From: a virus | Lineage: Duplodnaviria > Caudoviricetes | Direction: 5' to 3' (one strand) | Length of the DNA stretch: 64,000 bases | IMG/VR virus record: IMGVR_UViG_3300037067_019204 | Location: 64,001-128,000 of that record | In this document: positions 12,258 through 63,998 of the stretch, in pieces | Layout: each line of letters starts with the position of its first letter | Position numbering within the stretch: position 1 is the first letter of the stretch | Made by a program: the position numbers and the translations under genes | Notes under the pieces: model-generated | Database searches by the model: none | What the model was told of the DNA's origin: nothing | What the model saw: only the letters and a program-made list of their open reading frames with translations

Positions 12258-13187
12258 GTGAGTATACTTGATTATCAAAAAAAAGAACTCGCCCCTGAAA
12301 TATGGCGCGATGGTGGTGAATTAAGACGGGGGGTTAAAGAATTTATAATCTCCTGCGTTCGTGGTTTTTTTGATAGTTATAACATTGCTGGTTATGATTC
12401 TTTTATTAAAAGATTGTTTATTGGGTCTTCTTTAGCAACATTCTTTTATACTGAAATATCTGATTTAGATGTAAAAATTGTTATTGATACTGAAGAATTT
12501 AAAAAATATAATGCCCAATATTCTAATCCATCTGATGACGAGATATTAACATATCTTTTAAAAGAAGGTAGAAAAAGTTTTTGGTTAACAGCCGCTGTTC
12601 CCGGAACAATGCATACATTGGATTTTTATTTTGTTTCTCTAAAAGAAACAAAGCATATTAATCTATTAAAGTATGATAGCCTCTATGATGTTACAAACAA
12701 TAGATGGATTAAAGAACCTCAACAATTACCTGAGGGATATTCCCCTTCTTTAATTTTAAACTACGCAAAAGAGAAATCTCAGTCTTACTTAAGAAATATC
12801 ACACTTGAAATAGCTCAAACTCAATATGACACCATTGATTTAAAAATGTTGTTAGATTTTCTCAAAACAATGGATTCTGAGGATTTAAAGAATTTTGCAA
12901 GTGATATATCTAAATCTTTGCAGGAAATTAATACTGATCTTGAAAAATTAATGGAAAGTTATGAAGTTGTTAAAGAATTGAGGAAAAAAACCTTTAAAAA
13001 AGAAGAGCTTAATTCTCAATTAGAAAAAATAATGGGTTCAATTAATTACTCAGATGAAAATTTAGTATTTAAAATATTGCAAAGATATGGTTATATGAGG
13101 ATATTAAGCGAAATAAAAAACCTATTAGAAAAAGGTCATATATCTATATCAGAAATAGATGATCTTTCTGATGTGCTTGGGATTTAG
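12258..13187 (+). CDS. Pol-beta superfamily nucleotidyltransferase-like protein
   Basis: IGSSL...SDLDV motif, later LDFY; helical C-terminus. Confidence 0.65.
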   Translation: MSILDYQKKELAPEIWRDGGELRRGVKEFIISCVRGFFDSYNIAGYDSFIKRLFIGSSLATFFYTEISDLDVKIVIDTEEFKKYNAQYSNPSDDEILTYLLKEGRKSFWLTAAVPGTMHTLDFYFVSLKETKHINLLKYDSLYDVTNNRWIKEPQQLPEGYSPSLILNYAKEKSQSYLRNITLEIAQTQYDTIDLKMLLDFLKTMDSEDLKNFASDISKSLQEINTDLEKLMESYEVVKELRKKTFKKEELNSQLEKIMGSINYSDENLVFKILQRYGYMRILSEIKNLLEKGHISISEIDDLSDVLGI

Positions 13188-13189
13188 TA

Positions 13190-14473
13190 ATGTCTGATCA
13201 AACAAAAGAAGCCATAAGTTTAAAAGATATAAAATCTCTTTTTACTTTTTCTCCTGAAGATTTTGCTCTTACCTCAAAAGATTTAGGTGATGTTGCTCTA
13301 GATCAACAACCTCCTGTTGAACAAACAGAAGATATTACACCTATTACAAAGCAAGCACCACCACGTCCTAAAAGAGTAAAAAACCAACTATCACCCTTTT
13401 TTGATTATAGTATATCTGATTTGGATTTTCATTTAGATGAATTTGACCAAGCTGGGAATAGAAAAAAAGAATTAGAAGAACAATCTAGAGAACCAAAAAA
13501 AGAACCACCTATTGAAGAGGAAGTAACTGTTTCAGAAGTAAGGGAAGAAACAGGAGAAGCACAAGAGTATCCCTATAAATTACATTTACCCCCAGAATTA
13601 GCAACAAGAATTGGAGAACCTACTGTGGATCATTCATATTCTGCTCTTATGTATCTTCAATCTTTAGGATATAAAAAATTTGACTTTTTTGCAAATCCAG
13701 CGCATACACATAAATATGATGTTTGTGATGCTTTATCACGAATGAGTCCGTGGAGTTTAGATTATGTATTAAGAGATGCAGAAAGTCATTCACAATTAAA
13801 AGGATACCCAGTAGCACCCCTATTTCATTTTGCACATGTTAATTGTCAGGGGTATGTAGTTGTATCTCCTCCTACTACTATAGATGATATTCCTGATGAT
13901 GCTCCCGGTTTGCACATGTGGGAAGATGAATCTGAAATAAGAAGAGAAAAAGAAACTTTATTATCAAAACTTGCCCCTGTTATTGTAAATAGATTTACAT
14001 TAGCTCCTAATATGTTTGAGAAAATTCAAACAATGCAGATTCCTTCTACATCAACTGTTCGTTTACATGAATGGTATGAAACACTCCCCATTAGAAAGAA
14101 AAAAGGAAGTCAATGGAATCATAATGTAAAACCAGTGAAAGTCAAAACAACTCTTTTTATTAGAGATAAGTTGGGTTTGGTTCAACTTTTAAATAAAGAT
14201 ATGGTTGGGTTAGAAACTGAATCATACAATCAAATTTCAAAAGTATTTTTTCCATCATTGGAAATAAATGTAACTGTTCCTATTAGTGGAATAGAATCAT
14301 TACCTTTAAAAATAGCTTTAAGTGGAGATGCAAAAGAAGGTTCTTTTGTTTTGATTGAAGATGAAGATCTTGGTATTTCTTTAGGACAAGTTGGTGAAAA
14401 TTTGTATGTCTATGATCCTTCTTTTGATATGATTGTAGAGACAGATGATTGGCAATTATTAGAAACTGCTTAG
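13190..14473 (+). CDS. Hypothetical protein with MuF/head-morphogenesis-like Cys/His motif
   Basis: Acidic N-terminus; DVCD...PLFHFAHVNCQG resembles the C...HPNCRC motif. Confidence 0.4.
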   Translation: MSDQTKEAISLKDIKSLFTFSPEDFALTSKDLGDVALDQQPPVEQTEDITPITKQAPPRPKRVKNQLSPFFDYSISDLDFHLDEFDQAGNRKKELEEQSREPKKEPPIEEEVTVSEVREETGEAQEYPYKLHLPPELATRIGEPTVDHSYSALMYLQSLGYKKFDFFANPAHTHKYDVCDALSRMSPWSLDYVLRDAESHSQLKGYPVAPLFHFAHVNCQGYVVVSPPTTIDDIPDDAPGLHMWEDESEIRREKETLLSKLAPVIVNRFTLAPNMFEKIQTMQIPSTSTVRLHEWYETLPIRKKKGSQWNHNVKPVKVKTTLFIRDKLGLVQLLNKDMVGLETESYNQISKVFFPSLEINVTVPISGIESLPLKIALSGDAKEGSFVLIEDEDLGISLGQVGENLYVYDPSFDMIVETDDWQLLETA

Positions 14474-36122: not shown

Positions 36123-39100
36123 ATGGCATTAGGTGATAAATTATTAGATCCCGGTTTTAACCCAACTGATCCATCACGATCAAAAATTGATGGCTTTCCT
36201 TATTTTAAAAGTGTAATAAAATGTCCTGTTACTTTTACCAATGATATTATTGAATACGCAGAGAGCAAGGATTTCATCGGGGGTAAACTTCGCCCTTTAC
36301 AAAAATTATTTCTGGAAGAACTTTTTTCAAGAGATACTTTGGGCAATTACAGATATACTGAAGGTGTGCTGTGTTCAGGAATGCGCGGAGGTAAGACGCT
36401 TATAAAAGGCACACCTTTGCTTATGTATAATGGCACAATAAAAAAAGTTGAAGAGCTTCATCTTGGTGATTTAGTAATGGGTCCAGATTCAACACCTCGT
36501 ACTGTATTAGAAATACATAGTGGTGTGTCGGAGCTTTTTGAAATACAACAATCTTGTGCAATGACATATACTGTTAATGAATACCACATACTTTCTCTTA
36601 AAAAAGCCCAATCAGCTAAAAATGCAGATTTAAAATCACGTAATAGCAGGGGACGTTTTCCCAACGAACCAGAAATTGTTAATATACCAATTAAAGATTA
36701 TTTAAAAAAATCTAAGAAATGGAAATATTTCTTTAGGGGGTACAAAGCAGGACTAATAAATTTTCCAATTAAGGAAGTTTTATTAGATCCTTACTTTCTA
36801 GCTTGTTGGCTTGCCGATGGTACATCTATAGCCCCAGAGATAACATCTCCTGATATAGAAATAAAAAGTTATTTACAAGATTTTGCAAATAAGAACAATT
36901 TAAGATTATCTGTTGGTAAGAAAAAAGGAACAACAGCAGAAACACTTCGTTTATGCCGCATAACGGGAATGGCAAATCCAATTTTAGATAAATTAAAATC
37001 TTTAAATGTCTACAATAATAAACATATACCATTAGAATATATTGCAAATAGTAAAGAAATAAGATTACAAATATTAGCTGGGATGCTTGATTGTGATGGT
37101 TATTATACAAAAAAGCATGGATATGAAATAACATTAGCTAATAAAACATTGGCATATGATGTTAAACGTATTGCTGATACTTTAGGATACAGGACACACA
37201 TAAGACATAAAAGAACAACATGTAATTATAATAATTTTGTTGGGGATGGTTGGAGATTATCTATTTATGGAAATGTTTGGGAAATACCATGTAAAGTAGA
37301 AAGAAAAAAGTATGTTTACAATGGAAAGTTTTCAAATAAGGAGCAAGGTTTATCTTCTCTTAAAGTAACTTCGATTGGACAAGGAGAATATTATGGAATC
37401 GGTGTTGACAAAGATAACCTATATTGCCTAGCCGATGGTACTGTAACACACAATTCTTGGTTAGCTGCTTTAATTAGTACATATATGACTCAATTCATGC
37501 TTCAGTTTAATGACCCTGCTGTCCAATTTGGGCAATCACCCGGAACTCGTCTTACTGCACAATGTATTGCCACAACAGAGATCCAAGCAAAAGAAACAGT
37601 TTTTGCCCATGTAGAAAGTTTGATTTCAAAAACAGATTGGTGGAAAAAATATATTTCTTATTTGGTGGAAAGGGAAACTGCTGAAAATAAAAAAGGTCAA
37701 TTATTTACACAGTTTAAATTAGCATTTGAATTTCCTGAAAAAAGTTTAGCCATACTTTCTTTGCACTCAAACTCTGGTGCTTTAGCTGGTAAAACAAGTT
37801 ATTGTGTTGTTCTTGATGAGCTTAGTCGATTTGATGTGGCAGAAGGGAGCGTACAAACAAGAGAGGAAAAAAGAACAGCCGATGCTGTATACTCTACTGT
37901 AACACGTTCTTGCTCAACACTGGGTGCAATAAGTAAAGTTGTAACCATATCTTCTCCTATGTTTGAAGACGATTACACCATGCAATTGGTTGGAATGGCT
38001 GGGGCGTGTTATGTTAATCAAATGGCATCTATTATAAATCCTTTACGAACAAAGTATGATAGTAAAAGAGCACCTAGCTTATATGCTATGCATGCTACAA
38101 GTTTTGAATTAAATCCAAAAACAGAAGATAATCCAACAGGGCTATCAGAAGATGACCCACGATTTATTAATGAAAAACAAAAGAATCCTGAGACATATAG
38201 ACGTGACTATTTAGCTATACCACCTGCAACTATTAATCCATTTTTTGAATATCCAGAACGGATTGATAGGGTTATCCATAAAAGAGATAAAATGGTATTA
38301 TTTTCTGATAAAATAATAGAAGAAATGATTCAGAGTGATCATGGTGCTATTCAACGTTTATACATAGGAAAAAAAGTATTGCCTTTGATTCAAGATAGAA
38401 TGAAGAAATATTATGTTTGTGTTGACCAAGGAGAAAAGAAAGACCATTTTACATTAGCAATGGGACATGTTGAAGAGATCCCTATAGAGACTCAAAAAGA
38501 AAGTGGGGAAAAAGAAGAAAGAATAAGACTTAAAATAATTATAGATTTTGTTGAGGGCTGGGTTCCTGATAAAGAAAACCGTGTTACAGTTTCATTTCAA
38601 AATGTGGAAGAATCTATTAAGCTTCTTTGCACATGGTTTAATGTTGGTTCGGTAGCGTATGACCAATGGGCATCTATTGAATCAATCCAAAGATTGTTTT
38701 CAGAAGGTATTTATACTCAACAACTTGGTGCAACAATTGAAATGTATGATATTTTTAAACAACTTATTTATCAAGGACAAATTGAACTTCCAGATCATGA
38801 AATTCTTTTACGTGAACTTAAACAATTAACAAATATAAAATCTAAAAAAATTGAACACCCTGTTTCTGGAAGTAAAGACTACTCAGATGCTTGTTGCCGT
38901 GTTATTTGGTTGTGTTATGAAGAATATATCCTTAATACAATAGAGGGTAAACATATTTTACCCATGCGCCAGAGTCTTCCAACCATACGATCAGTTGCCA
39001 CTTTTTATGAGTTAGCAAGAATGAATCAGAACAATCCCCATGCCGCTATATGGGGGCAGAGTCGAGCCGGAGAAGGGGTGTTTGGAGACGGGATGGTCGT

Positions 39101-39137
39101 GCGGCAAAATGTGATGCCAAATTTAAAAAATAATTAA
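36123..39137 (+). CDS. terL: Terminase large subunit interrupted by an intein
   Basis: Walker A GMRGGK|S split by intein, Walker B VVLDE, ISSP, nuclease CVDQG...DHF, YDQW, SKDYSDA. Confidence 0.88.
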   Translation: MALGDKLLDPGFNPTDPSRSKIDGFPYFKSVIKCPVTFTNDIIEYAESKDFIGGKLRPLQKLFLEELFSRDTLGNYRYTEGVLCSGMRGGKTLIKGTPLLMYNGTIKKVEELHLGDLVMGPDSTPRTVLEIHSGVSELFEIQQSCAMTYTVNEYHILSLKKAQSAKNADLKSRNSRGRFPNEPEIVNIPIKDYLKKSKKWKYFFRGYKAGLINFPIKEVLLDPYFLACWLADGTSIAPEITSPDIEIKSYLQDFANKNNLRLSVGKKKGTTAETLRLCRITGMANPILDKLKSLNVYNNKHIPLEYIANSKEIRLQILAGMLDCDGYYTKKHGYEITLANKTLAYDVKRIADTLGYRTHIRHKRTTCNYNNFVGDGWRLSIYGNVWEIPCKVERKKYVYNGKFSNKEQGLSSLKVTSIGQGEYYGIGVDKDNLYCLADGTVTHNSWLAALISTYMTQFMLQFNDPAVQFGQSPGTRLTAQCIATTEIQAKETVFAHVESLISKTDWWKKYISYLVERETAENKKGQLFTQFKLAFEFPEKSLAILSLHSNSGALAGKTSYCVVLDELSRFDVAEGSVQTREEKRTADAVYSTVTRSCSTLGAISKVVTISSPMFEDDYTMQLVGMAGACYVNQMASIINPLRTKYDSKRAPSLYAMHATSFELNPKTEDNPTGLSEDDPRFINEKQKNPETYRRDYLAIPPATINPFFEYPERIDRVIHKRDKMVLFSDKIIEEMIQSDHGAIQRLYIGKKVLPLIQDRMKKYYVCVDQGEKKDHFTLAMGHVEEIPIETQKESGEKEERIRLKIIIDFVEGWVPDKENRVTVSFQNVEESIKLLCTWFNVGSVAYDQWASIESIQRLFSEGIYTQQLGATIEMYDIFKQLIYQGQIELPDHEILLRELKQLTNIKSKKIEHPVSGSKDYSDACCRVIWLCYEEYILNTIEGKHILPMRQSLPTIRSVATFYELARMNQNNPHAAIWGQSRAGEGVFGDGMVVRQNVMPNLKNN
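36396..37454 (+). mobile_element. Intein with LAGLIDADG homing endonuclease (353 aa), first residue Thr
   Basis: Begins TLIKGTP...V.EL..GD.VMGPD; block B VNEYHIL; WLADG and LAGMLDCDG; ends LADGTVTHN followed by Ser+1. Confidence 0.9.
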
Positions 39138-39176
39138 TAAAAAAACGGGTAAAGACCTTTCGATCTTTACCCGTTT
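39138..39176 (-). terminator. Rho-independent terminator, strongest on the - strand, probably bidirectional
   Basis: AAACGGGTAAAGA/TCTTTACCCGTTT stem; T7 tract on the - strand. Confidence 0.8.
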
Positions 39177-39320
39177 ATCAGAAGTAAACGCACAGGATTG
39201 TGAGTGGTAGCAAAAAAATGTGTGATCTATTTTGCCCCTTCTCAAAAAGAAATTGTCTGATACAATTTCTCCTTTAAGGCCAGTCTTCTTAATGCAAGAA
39301 GAAACTAAACGGTTGGCCTA
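39138..39320 (-). ncRNA. Candidate tracrRNA-like structured RNA
   Basis: Three hairpins, then an anti-repeat (39180-39197) complementary to the CRISPR repeat, then the terminator. Possible TTGAAT.../TAATAT promoter at 39325-39351. Confidence 0.55.
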
Positions 39321-39360
39321 ATTTATATTATATTTTTTCTTATATATTCAAGGTGCCTAT

Positions 39361-39571
39361 CCAGTCTTCCTGTGCGTAAGGGCTTCTAGTCTGCTGTTGT
39401 CTCTTAAAGTATACTAAACATCCCGTCTTCCTGTGCGTAAGGGCTTCTATCAGAAAGAAACATGTAATGTATTCCTTTTGAACCCGTCTTCCTGTGCGTA
39501 AGGGCTTCTAAGAAACATTAATAGATTGTAGCTATTAGAATACCCCGTCTTCCTGTGCGTAAGGGCTTCTA
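39361..39571 (-). CRISPR. Mini CRISPR-like array: 4 repeats (28 nt), 3 spacers (33 nt), no cas genes in window
   Basis: + strand repeat CCCGTCTTCCTGTGCGTAAGGGCTTCTA at 39361 (CCA variant), 39422, 39483, 39544; 61-bp period, unique spacers. Orientation inferred from the degenerate left repeat and the - strand operon. Confidence 0.85.
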
Positions 39572-39673
39572 AGGCCCACAGCTTGTGACAAACATTGAGT
39601 ATATAAGCATTAAAATAAGTGTAATCATTGCTGATATAATAACAGAACAATATATCCACAAAAACATATCCAT
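39569..39673 (-). CDS. 34-aa single-TM peptide whose TAG stop is the first 3 nt of the CRISPR repeat
   Basis: GAGGTG RBS; MDMFLWIYCSVIISAMITLILMLIYSMFVTSCGP-stop; not in ORF track. Confidence 0.55.
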   Translation of the reverse strand: MDMFLWIYCSVIISAMITLILMLIYSMFVTSCGP

Positions 39674-39688
39674 ATAATCACCTCTTAT

Positions 39689-40036
39689 CTAATTTTCATA
39701 TTCTTTTACTACTATTGGTTTTGTAGAGTTTATATATTCTTTTTCTTCCTCTATAACCTTTTCTGCTGATTGAATAGTATCACAATAAGTAATCTTTTTT
39801 AATGCAATATTTTTAAAACCGCACCAAACACCAGAAGGTGTTTGCCATTGTGGATAATATTTATCTTTAATTTTAACAATTCTATATGCTATAGGATCAG
39901 GTATAGAATTAGTAGATGGTAATTTTTTTCTTGATTGACGATAATAGCAACCCATAAGAACAATTAATATAAATAAAAAAATGCAAATTACAATCCCCCA
40001 AGTACCTAATACTGTATATGAATTCAATATACTCAT
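39689..40036 (-). CDS. Hypothetical membrane-anchored protein
   Basis: N-terminal TM, AGGAGG RBS. Confidence 0.7.
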   Translation of the reverse strand: MSILNSYTVLGTWGIVICIFLFILIVLMGCYYRQSRKKLPSTNSIPDPIAYRIVKIKDKYYPQWQTPSGVWCGFKNIALKKITYCDTIQSAEKVIEEEKEYINSTKPIVVKEYEN

Positions 40037-40051
40037 ATCTAAACCTCCTAC

Positions 40052-40264
40052 TTATTTATTATTTTTAATAAAATAATTTTTGTCATTATCTTTTCTAATC
40101 CAAATTCCATACCAACCATTATCTTTTGATATAAAAAGATAGCCGGGTTGGTTATCAAAGCAAATAGTTTGTTTTCTAAAACAATAAAAAGACCATGTTT
40201 TATTTCCCAATATATCTTTTGCTTTATTTGTTAATGGTTCAATATTCATAGTTATCACCACCAC
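40052..40264 (-). CDS. Hypothetical protein
   Basis: ORF in - strand operon. Confidence 0.55.
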   Translation of the reverse strand: MVVITMNIEPLTNKAKDILGNKTWSFYCFRKQTICFDNQPGYLFISKDNGWYGIWIRKDNDKNYFIKNNK

Positions 40265-40368
40265 CCATAAAACGGATGATAACTTTCAACTTTTTTGCAT
40301 TTGACACAAATACGAGTATTAAAATCATAATAGTGCCATTTGTGTAATCCTATGTTGCATAATTTCAT
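40255..40368 (-). CDS. Small Cys/His protein (DUF1660-like)
   Basis: MKLCNIGLHKWHYY...RICVKCK; not in ORF track. Confidence 0.45.
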   Translation of the reverse strand: MKLCNIGLHKWHYYDFNTRICVKCKKVESYHPFYGWW

Positions 40369-40402
40369 TTTGATTACCCCAAGATTATTAAGTGTTAATT
40401 AA

Positions 40403-40885
40403 CTATGTCCATAAAAAGTTTCTTATTTTAATCAAACAAACCAAACTCTCTTCTTCTTTTTTCCTAAATTCTTCCTCACATTGTTTTAGCAAATCAAATA
40501 AATATTCCCCATATTTAGAACAAATTGATTTATATTCGTAAAAATCATCCCCTTGATAAGGTTCAGACCATAATATATTATGTTCAGACCATTCACTTAG
40601 TAAGTAATCAATTTCATCTTGTTTTTCCTGTCTTTCTTTTTTCCAGTAATTATAAAGATAGTCCATATCTTTCTTTGCTTGTTCATGATATTCATCACTA
40701 TCCCAACAGATTGTATCTATTCCACCATTCTCATAAAAATCACAGAGAAGTTCAAAATTAAAAGTAACCAACATGTCCAAGCATTCCCACGGTGCATAGA
40801 ATGCTTTGCTGGATTTCCAAAACAATTTTATCTTATAGTATCTTCTTCTTATAAACCAAGTATGTTTATATATAAATTTATTCAT
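40403..40885 (-). CDS. Hypothetical phage protein
   Basis: 160 aa, Trp/Glu rich. Confidence 0.7.
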   Translation of the reverse strand: MNKFIYKHTWFIRRRYYKIKLFWKSSKAFYAPWECLDMLVTFNFELLCDFYENGGIDTICWDSDEYHEQAKKDMDYLYNYWKKERQEKQDEIDYLLSEWSEHNILWSEPYQGDDFYEYKSICSKYGEYLFDLLKQCEEEFRKKEEESLVCLIKIRNFLWT

Positions 40886-41058
40886 GGTTTTTTCTTCTCT
40901 TTAGATAGACTAACGGTATCAATATACAGCATTGCAAATAACACAGCCTCAAGTATGTGAGCCGAAAGTTCACCATGATTCATATTTTGGTTTGCCCCAA
41001 TATATGTAATTACTGCATTATAAATATCATTTTGAAACTCATCCCCAAATGCACTCAT
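40882..41058 (-). CDS. Small hypothetical protein (58 aa)
   Basis: AGGAGG RBS, MSAFGDEFQ...; TTGACA promoter at 41110-41115 upstream. Confidence 0.55.
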   Translation of the reverse strand: MSAFGDEFQNDIYNAVITYIGANQNMNHGELSAHILEAVLFAMLYIDTVSLSKEKKKP

Positions 41059-63018: not shown

Positions 63019-63381
63019 TCATACAGCCCCTCTTGTTTGTTTTTGTTGATATTCTTTTTTTATTATAGTTAATACCTCTTTCCATTTTTTGTTAAATTCT
63101 TCATCGTGCTTCCCCGGATATACCTTATGTTTCAATAATATATGAGCCGTCTCATGTGCTAAAGCGTTTTGAACCATGAAAAGAGATTTAATTTCATACG
63201 CATTCAAAAGAAAGTTTGCACTTTTTTTATTGTAAACACAAGCTGACATGCTTACTTCATCAGGAGAAGTGCTAGTAAAAGAATGTGTAGTAAGAGTAAT
63301 ATCTATTTTTCTTTTACATAGTCTTTCCAGAATGATTTGGAGTCTATGCCATTTTATTTTAATAGGTGCTTGTTCATTCAT
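63019..63381 (-). CDS. Zincin (SprT/YgjP-like) metallopeptidase-like protein
   Basis: LAHETAH.......HDEEF. Confidence 0.65.
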   Translation of the reverse strand: MNEQAPIKIKWHRLQIILERLCKRKIDITLTTHSFTSTSPDEVSMSACVYNKKSANFLLNAYEIKSLFMVQNALAHETAHILLKHKVYPGKHDEEFNKKWKEVLTIIKKEYQQKQTRGAV

Positions 63382-63998
63382 ATCAAGCTATCCTTTGATC
63401 TTCCCCCCCAGCGATTGGTTATAGGAATAACCGCAGAACCACCCCCGCTACTTCCTCTTGCTGTTACAGGTAGGTCTGCTTTTTCTGATTCTTCCTTTTT
63501 GTAATCACTTCCATAATTGCACCCATAATCAGAATCATAGTCATAATATTTGTATGATCTGCCATACCCATATTTTTTATAACTGTTATTTGAAAAGAGG
63601 ATGCCGTCACATACTTCAAAGTCCTTCGGAGACCTTACCCAGACTTTATCAGGAGAAAAAATTATGAACTTTCCTGAAAGCTTTGTGAGAACCTTTAGCC
63701 CCAGTTGTGACACAAGCATTGCCGCCATTCGGGAATCACTCATTTCTCCTTCAGGGAAAAACTTGTTGGCTATAAAGAAGGGCATTTCATAGTCTTCCCA
63801 ACGTGTAATACATCCATTATGGAATAGAACTGAAGACCTCCCACTATAAGAAAGTTTAAGGGGGCTTTTGGTTGAAACAAGAAATGGGTGTGTAAGTTCC
63901 TGAGTTTTCCCACCCGCTGTTCCTATACGGAAGTGAACAACATGCAGATGACCTTCCAACTTAAGCTTTTGATATGTATCCCATGCTGTCTCAACTTT
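63378..63998 (-). CDS. Class II (Ntn) glutamine amidotransferase-like protein; 5' end outside window
   Basis: HFRIGT.G.......HPF, FHNG, SDS, FSN; frame open to the window edge. Confidence 0.78.
   Translation of the reverse strand, partial: KVETAWDTYQKLKLEGHLHVVHFRIGTAGGKTQELTHPFLVSTKSPLKLSYSGRSSVLFHNGCITRWEDYEMPFFIANKFFPEGEMSDSRMAAMLVSQLGLKVLTKLSGKFIIFSPDKVWVRSPKDFEVCDGILFSNNSYKKYGYGRSYKYYDYDSDYGCNYGSDYKKEESEKADLPVTARGSSGGGSAVIPITNRWGGRSKDSLI

Follow-up and report, generated by a model that had tools for sequence, protein, structure and literature searches.

The window analysed here is a stretch of 64,000 nucleotides that corresponds to bases 64001-128000 of a 161,311-bp phage record in IMG/VR (approximately 65% complete, 31% G+C). 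The gene content of the record includes a PhuZ-type tubulin, a sigma factor, a DNA polymerase A and an intein-bearing large terminase. The terminase gene lies on the plus strand of the window (36123-39137), and its intein combines Hint and LAGLIDADG domains; a second intein with a LAGLIDADG domain is present elsewhere in the genome, in a 1452-aa protein encoded on the minus strand (L084:13117-17475). Directly past the terminase stop codon we find a structured region (39138-39351) followed by a mini CRISPR array (39361-39571, minus strand). The genes upstream of the array, from 39689 onward, are all located on the minus strand, and the ORFs flanking the array and the RNA encode the terminase and small proteins without a nuclease signature.

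The insert is absent from the phages with the nearest terminases (61-64% identity), which show the same gene order. One of these insert-less terminase relatives is a complete genome of 253 kb, and it is also devoid of any PF07282 gene. The two phages with the closest terminases carry an SLT gene and an AcrVA2-like gene downstream of the terminase (L096:6076-7188 and L097:5754-6875); in the present phage this slot is occupied by the array and its accompanying RNA.

The array is made up of four 28-nt repeats, which begin at 39361, 39422, 39483 and 39544 and thus recur every 61 nt without deviation, and of three unique 33-nt spacers between them. It hence shows the direct repeats and unique spacers of near-constant length that characterize a CRISPR array. 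Because the period is no multiple of 3, the pattern does not represent a protein repeat. Three repeats are identical and the one nearest to the RNA (39361-39388) differs at a single position; on neither strand does the 28-nt repeat have a fold of its own. A promoter-like site (ATTACA-N16-TATACT, 39598-39625, minus strand) is situated upstream of the array; some 27 nt separate its end at 39598 from the first repeat. We also observed an ORF of 34 codons for a hydrophobic peptide (39569-39673, minus strand) with a good ribosome-binding site. The leader-proximal repeat opens with the TAG stop codon of this ORF, and the 'leader' of the array may therefore be translated.

An exact 22-mer of the repeat has 0 matches in IMG/VR, and a 15-mer returns single chance matches only. 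A two-copy pattern of the repeat core, run against 185,579 GTDB species genomes and the JGI metagenomes, yielded 48 loci of which none is a relative (at most 20 of 28 positions resemble the repeat, with nothing beyond the forced core). Overall, no homolog of the 28-nt repeat or of its RNA was found in IMG/VR, the GTDB genomes or the JGI metagenomes. The spacers have no match among INPHARED phages and PLSDB plasmids (BLAST), and a search of IMG/VR with their central 18-mers gave no convincing protospacer. The best-looking candidate, between the spacer at 39389-39421 and L098:7746-7771 (IMGVR_UViG_3300015607_000169), agrees at 24 of 33 positions (18 contiguous) and was judged to be due to chance.

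The structured RNA is read from the minus strand and spans 39319-39143, roughly 175 bases. Folding of 39330-39138 on this strand gives a minimum free energy (MFE) of -58.9 kcal/mol (z = -6.0, with 0 of 200 shuffles as stable), against z = -4.1 for the plus strand of the same region. The MFE structure contains all of the stems that a preliminary description had proposed from the bare sequence, each at its minus-strand position. Stem 1 (6 bp, 39319-39314 with 39282-39277) encloses an inner hairpin of 7-8 bp (39302-39296/39290-39284) as well as an unpaired stretch of 11 nt that contains CCGUUU. It is followed by hairpin 2 (39246-39272, 11-13 bp with an AUCAG loop), which ends 1-3 nt before the UGAG strand of a long imperfect hairpin (39200-39244). 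The latter is built from UGAG:CUCA, GG:CC and GGCAAAA:UUUUGCU pairings, with UGAG (39244-39241) and CUCA (39204-39201) closing around the inner 7-bp stem (39236-39230 with 39215-39209). A motif scan places CACUCAC at 39200-39206, after which come the long anti-repeat (39179-39197) and an intrinsic terminator (39136-39176). The tracr-like structured element is thereby confirmed. An Rfam search of 38000-41000 returned neither a family match nor a tracrRNA match.

The terminator proposed for the RNA end was recovered as a 15-bp hairpin (39176-39143) with seven U. It sits where the minus-strand unit meets the oncoming terminase gene (plus strand, end at 39137). In the terminator scan a 15-bp stem with a U-run occurs on the minus strand only, the plus-strand side of the hairpin having a poor U-run; a plus-strand reading has no canonical terminator and a weaker fold. 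At the other end a promoter-like TTGAAT-N18-TATAAA (39322-39351) was picked up by a relaxed scan and missed by a stricter one; it would place the start of the RNA near 39316. Given that the terminator, the promoter-like sites, the degenerate repeat at the leader-distal end and the strand of the upstream genes all agree, transcription from the minus strand is favoured.

The repeat pairs with the RNA in a long, bulged duplex much as anticipated. Bases 39197-39188 pair with repeat positions 12-21 (10 bp) and bases 39184-39179 with positions 1-6 (6 bp), separated by an internal loop of 5 nt in the repeat versus 3 nt in the RNA (39187-39185). The duplex has an energy of -24.4 kcal/mol, a value reached by 0 of 300 shuffled repeats, and the exact reverse-complement 10-mer of the repeat is unique in the 64-kb window. 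About 0.4% of the 200-nt windows in the genome pair with the repeat equally well, which puts the chance of such a pairing adjoining the array at approximately 1-2%. A stronger-looking complement to the array repeat (around G000 130342) was dismissed since it lies inside a coding region.

Past the long anti-repeat a repeat tail of 7 nt is left. The possible second contact, between the tail sequence AGACGG and the unpaired CCGUUU of stem 1 (39312-39307), could be reproduced: this is the sole unpaired stretch that gives 6 contiguous pairs with the tail. Taken alone it is a weak signal, with about 10% of shuffled or random tails matching it (p ~0.10).

The phage also encodes a Cas12f1 protein of 455 residues (G000 12408-13775), which lies outside the window at a distance of 90 kb from the array and is the only PF07282 protein of the record. 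Type V-F1 CRISPR-Cas12f1 was formerly named V-U3, and the PADLOC profiles for Cas12f and Cas12u3 both match the protein along its entire length, with E-values of 9e-104 and 1e-102, respectively. Among solved structures it comes closest to AsCas12f (8J12, 8J3R) and CnCas12f1 (8HR5). The RuvC acidic residues are matched in the alignment by D221, E317 and D394, a triad that is invariant among 12 relatives, together with two CxxC pairs. The RuvC triad is intact and the enzyme is predicted to be catalytically competent.

The locus of this gene (G000:C1:11960-13775; L005:1253-2703, minus strand) looks like a complete type V-F1 system. A tracrRNA overlaps the 3' end of the gene (90 bits with covariance model R1, described below), and an array of six repeats starts about 80 nt downstream of the gene. 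The repeat is 32 nt long and unlike that of the window; its tail UGAGAG pairs with the loop of its own tracrRNA hairpin. Pairing of this repeat with the window RNA is no better than that of shuffles. A tblastn search with seven family proteins found no Cas12f/TnpB paralog or remnant elsewhere in the 161 kb, and Pfam, PHROGs and PADLOC scans of most larger ORFs of the record gave no second effector candidate. A six-frame search of the record for Cas9 RuvC_III, IscB RRXRR and Cas1 was negative as well.

To describe the family to which this locus belongs, Cas12f1 relatives (40-83% identity) were combined with 24 further IMG/VR loci, giving a set of about 30 that all carry the gene, the scaffold and an array. 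The scaffold consensus starts with a 7-bp hairpin that shows compensatory changes at four pairs, followed by a linker of 3-4 nt, then GGUGAG, a variable insert and CACUCAC, a motif invariant in the family that pairs back with GGUGAG. Two covariance models (R1 and R2), built from the scaffold alignments (A1/A3), find one or two tracrRNA copies per family locus. An anti-repeat beginning 3-5 nt past CUCA can pair with the local repeat over its middle or 3' half, and 5-11 nt of the repeat remain as a tail. In 13 of 15 loci the local repeat ranks first or second among 16 repeats as a partner for the anti-repeat. A second pairing joins the hairpin loop to the final 5-6 nt of the repeat: the two are complementary in 16 of 17 loci, compared with 27% when loop and repeat are taken from different loci, and the single exception is an artefact of the repeat boundary.

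These comparisons show that both pairings co-vary with the local repeat. They match the published plan of Cas12f1, in which a long bulged stem is accompanied by a short stem of 5-7 bp in a pseudoknot (PMC11246509). The tracrRNA always precedes its array on the same strand, and in five related phage records, searched in full, all tracrRNA matches fall within approximately 2 kb of the effector. Five family loci contain two tracrRNA-plus-array modules with differing repeats and one effector.

Several features of the window element agree with this family rule. Its CACUCAC (39206-39200) ends 2 nt before the anti-repeat, which puts the first base of the latter 3 nt behind CUCA. There are two copies of the motif on the two strands of the 64-kb window together (128 kb), so that the chance of finding it in register is about 1e-4, a value to be read with the caveat that the match was noticed after the fact. 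The UGAG strand takes the place of GGUGAG as the partner of CACUCAC, hairpins are found at the 5' side, the candidate site for the tail lies in an unpaired region of a hairpin, and the tail length of 7 nt falls within the family range. When folded without the anti-repeat, the element adopts two 5' hairpins and the long imperfect hairpin ending in CACUCAC, which is the same three-part shape as seen for the phage's own Cas12f1 tracrRNA. On this basis the long imperfect hairpin is best regarded as the counterpart of the family's GGUGAG...CACUCAC helix. The anti-repeat is specific for its own repeat (-23.6 kcal/mol, against -11.1 for the best of 15 other family repeats).

There are also clear misfits. 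The first G of GUGAG is replaced by U, an extra hairpin is inserted between the tail-pairing hairpin and the helix, and the candidate tail-pairing site is part of stem 1, farther from the helix, instead of the loop of the GGUGAG-adjacent hairpin. One relative (L110:654-746) likewise has its tail-pairing site in an unpaired stretch, with inserted hairpins after it. The family order of tracrRNA and array is reversed here (array, tracrRNA, terminator), and the repeat is 28 nt long and unrelated to the family repeats, which have approximately 30-38 nt. The covariance models reflect these differences: the element is absent from the window-wide R1 and R2 results at E <= 10, and in the whole phage record the models recover solely the tracrRNA at the cas12f gene. 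In a search restricted to 231 nt, R1 aligns with the full length of the element and in the register anticipated from the family, scoring 6.6 bits (E 0.077, valid for these 231 nt alone); with R2 no alignment in this register is obtained. The best window-wide R1 match (63343-63434, minus strand, 18.4 bits, E 0.054) is without GUGAG/CUCAC and probably arose by chance.

Among characterized systems the element most resembles the tracrRNAs of AsCas12f1 (8J12/8J3R) and CnCas12f1 (8HR5), which share the long structured 5' scaffold, the anti-repeat near the 3' end and the combination of a long bulged stem with a short stem (a candidate of 6 bp here; PMC11246509). AsCas12f1 binds 28 nt of its repeat (PMC11246509), which equals the repeat length in the window, and a member of this clade is encoded in the same genome. 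In contrast to V-F1 tracrRNAs, the element lies 90 kb from cas12f, is positioned downstream of its array with a terminator of its own, and shows no sequence homology detectable by covariance model. Mini-arrays in virus genomes without adjacent cas genes have been described (PMC11656645) and are similarly short. Those arrays have repeats identical to the host's and no tracrRNA, whereas the module in the window has its own tracrRNA and an effector candidate in its own phage, and no host array with its repeat was found. The TranC systems, which are transposon-CRISPR intermediates (Jin et al. 2025, cited in PMC13565253), likewise combine TnpB-sized effectors with a guide scaffold split into a tracrRNA-like part and array-derived crRNAs; by its profile and solved-structure matches, the phage effector belongs within established Cas12f1 and not in an intermediate clade.

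Taken together, we consider it probable (roughly 60%) that the minus-strand element at 39319-39143 encodes a tracrRNA of type V-F1 (Cas12f1) that serves the neighbouring array of four repeats. The two-part pairing of Cas12f type that had been suggested for this RNA gains support from its context, namely the Cas12f1 of the same phage, the covariation seen in the relatives and the CACUCAC motif, and not from direct homologs. Under this reading, minus-strand transcription of the array would begin near 39591, and the tracrRNA would be made from about 39316 or by read-through out of the array. Repeat positions 1-21 would then form the long stem with the tracrRNA, and the tail AGACGG would probably form the short stem, a pseudoknot, with CCGUUU of stem 1. 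The resulting guides, with the repeat at the 5' and the spacer at the 3' side, would load a Cas12f dimer for targeting of DNA.

As to the nuclease, the phage's own Cas12f1, acting in trans over 90 kb, seems the likeliest single candidate, at a little less than even odds. Such use in trans is plausible since both anti-repeats of AsCas12f1 can be freely reprogrammed, with 28 nt of the repeat engaged (PMC11246509), and since relatives keep two modules per enzyme. A point against it is that there is no cas12f gene at the window locus, the only one being 90 kb away. Otherwise the effector may come from outside, or from a further Cas12f-type gene in the third of the genome, about 90 kb, that the record lacks.

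This alternative, a Cas12f-type module that uses another effector (from a gene in the unsequenced 35% or so, or a Cas12f-type protein that the host or a co-infecting phage provides), is a minor possibility. The record is only about 65% complete, and the tracrRNA of the local Cas12f1 has other hairpin sequences and goes with a repeat of another length and tail. There are documented cases of viral mini-arrays that make use of an effector from a different source (PMC11656645), and related large phages commonly carry Cas12f1 systems (24 IMG/VR loci). However, the repeat core occurs in no array of the 185,579 species genomes, the JGI metagenomes or IMG/VR, and the 161 kb hold no TnpB/Cas12f paralog or remnant; moreover, a tracrRNA of its own would be needless for an array that relies on a complete foreign system.

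It might also be argued that the cassette is a decaying or non-functional remnant (for instance one captured from another phage), or that chance matches happen to lie beside a tracrRNA-independent array. The lack of an adjacent effector, of homologs and of protospacer matches would fit this, as would the failure of the covariance models, the related phages of the same gene order that are without the whole insert, and the lack of a cas1 gene in the record. We regard it as improbable, because the signals are intact and because an adjacent anti-repeat (about 1-2%) jointly with an in-register CACUCAC (about 1e-4) is very unlikely to arise by coincidence. Three repeats are identical with the fourth only one base off, the pairing of 10 + 6 bp is perfect, the fold has a z of -6.0, and the promoter-like sites and canonical terminator are all in place; the repeat also has no hairpin of its own that would allow tracrRNA-independent processing.

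A more far-reaching variant, to which we give only a slim chance, holds that the tracrRNA and array form a free-standing guide cassette without a linked nuclease that programs any Cas12f1 present in the cell, or, in a milder version, that one phage Cas12f1 serves two orthogonal pairs. If true, a free-standing cassette could turn the Cas12f1 of a co-infecting rival phage against that rival, and borrowing of a foreign nuclease in this manner would constitute a new form of phage-phage conflict. A single Cas12f1 with two unlinked orthogonal tracrRNA:crRNA pairs, if real, would be the natural counterpart of engineered anti-repeat reprogramming.

A type II or IscB-like reading, in which, on the minus strand, the 6-bp stem sits immediately 3' of the preceding spacer (or a plus-strand version of this), is very unlikely. 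In Cas9 crRNA:tracrRNA guides a lower stem, a bulge and an upper stem are followed by a terminator hairpin 3' of the anti-repeat, and the element does offer a lower stem of 6 bp, a bulge, an upper stem of 10 bp and a terminator in that position. Yet the 161 kb hold no match to Cas9 RuvC_III or IscB RRXRR, the structured RNA lies nearly entirely 5' of the anti-repeat with just the terminator after it (no nexus or hairpin set), 28 nt would be a short repeat for type II, the motif of the Cas12f family is in register, and the plus strand has no canonical terminator and a poorer fold.

Returning to a V-F1 tracrRNA with its cognate array, guide RNAs of Cas12f1 are already known, and it is a cassette unlinked from the only nuclease gene that is less usual. 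The unusual points are that 90 kb separate the two, that the scaffold is divergent, and that repeat and anti-repeat bear no relation to those of the nuclease's own cassette. If the phage Cas12f1 uses both cassettes, the enzyme would read the shape of the RNA and not the sequence of the repeat, and there would be two orthogonal natural scaffolds for one nuclease of 455 residues. Apart from the window element, the family comparison provides a simple finder for phage Cas12f1 tracrRNAs, namely a hairpin loop that pairs with the repeat tail and an anti-repeat that follows CACUCAC. Within the family set, the cas12f gene of the MAG contig L101 is flanked on both sides by tracrRNA copies (306-384 and 1942-2041), and the first two spacers after the downstream copy are duplicated.
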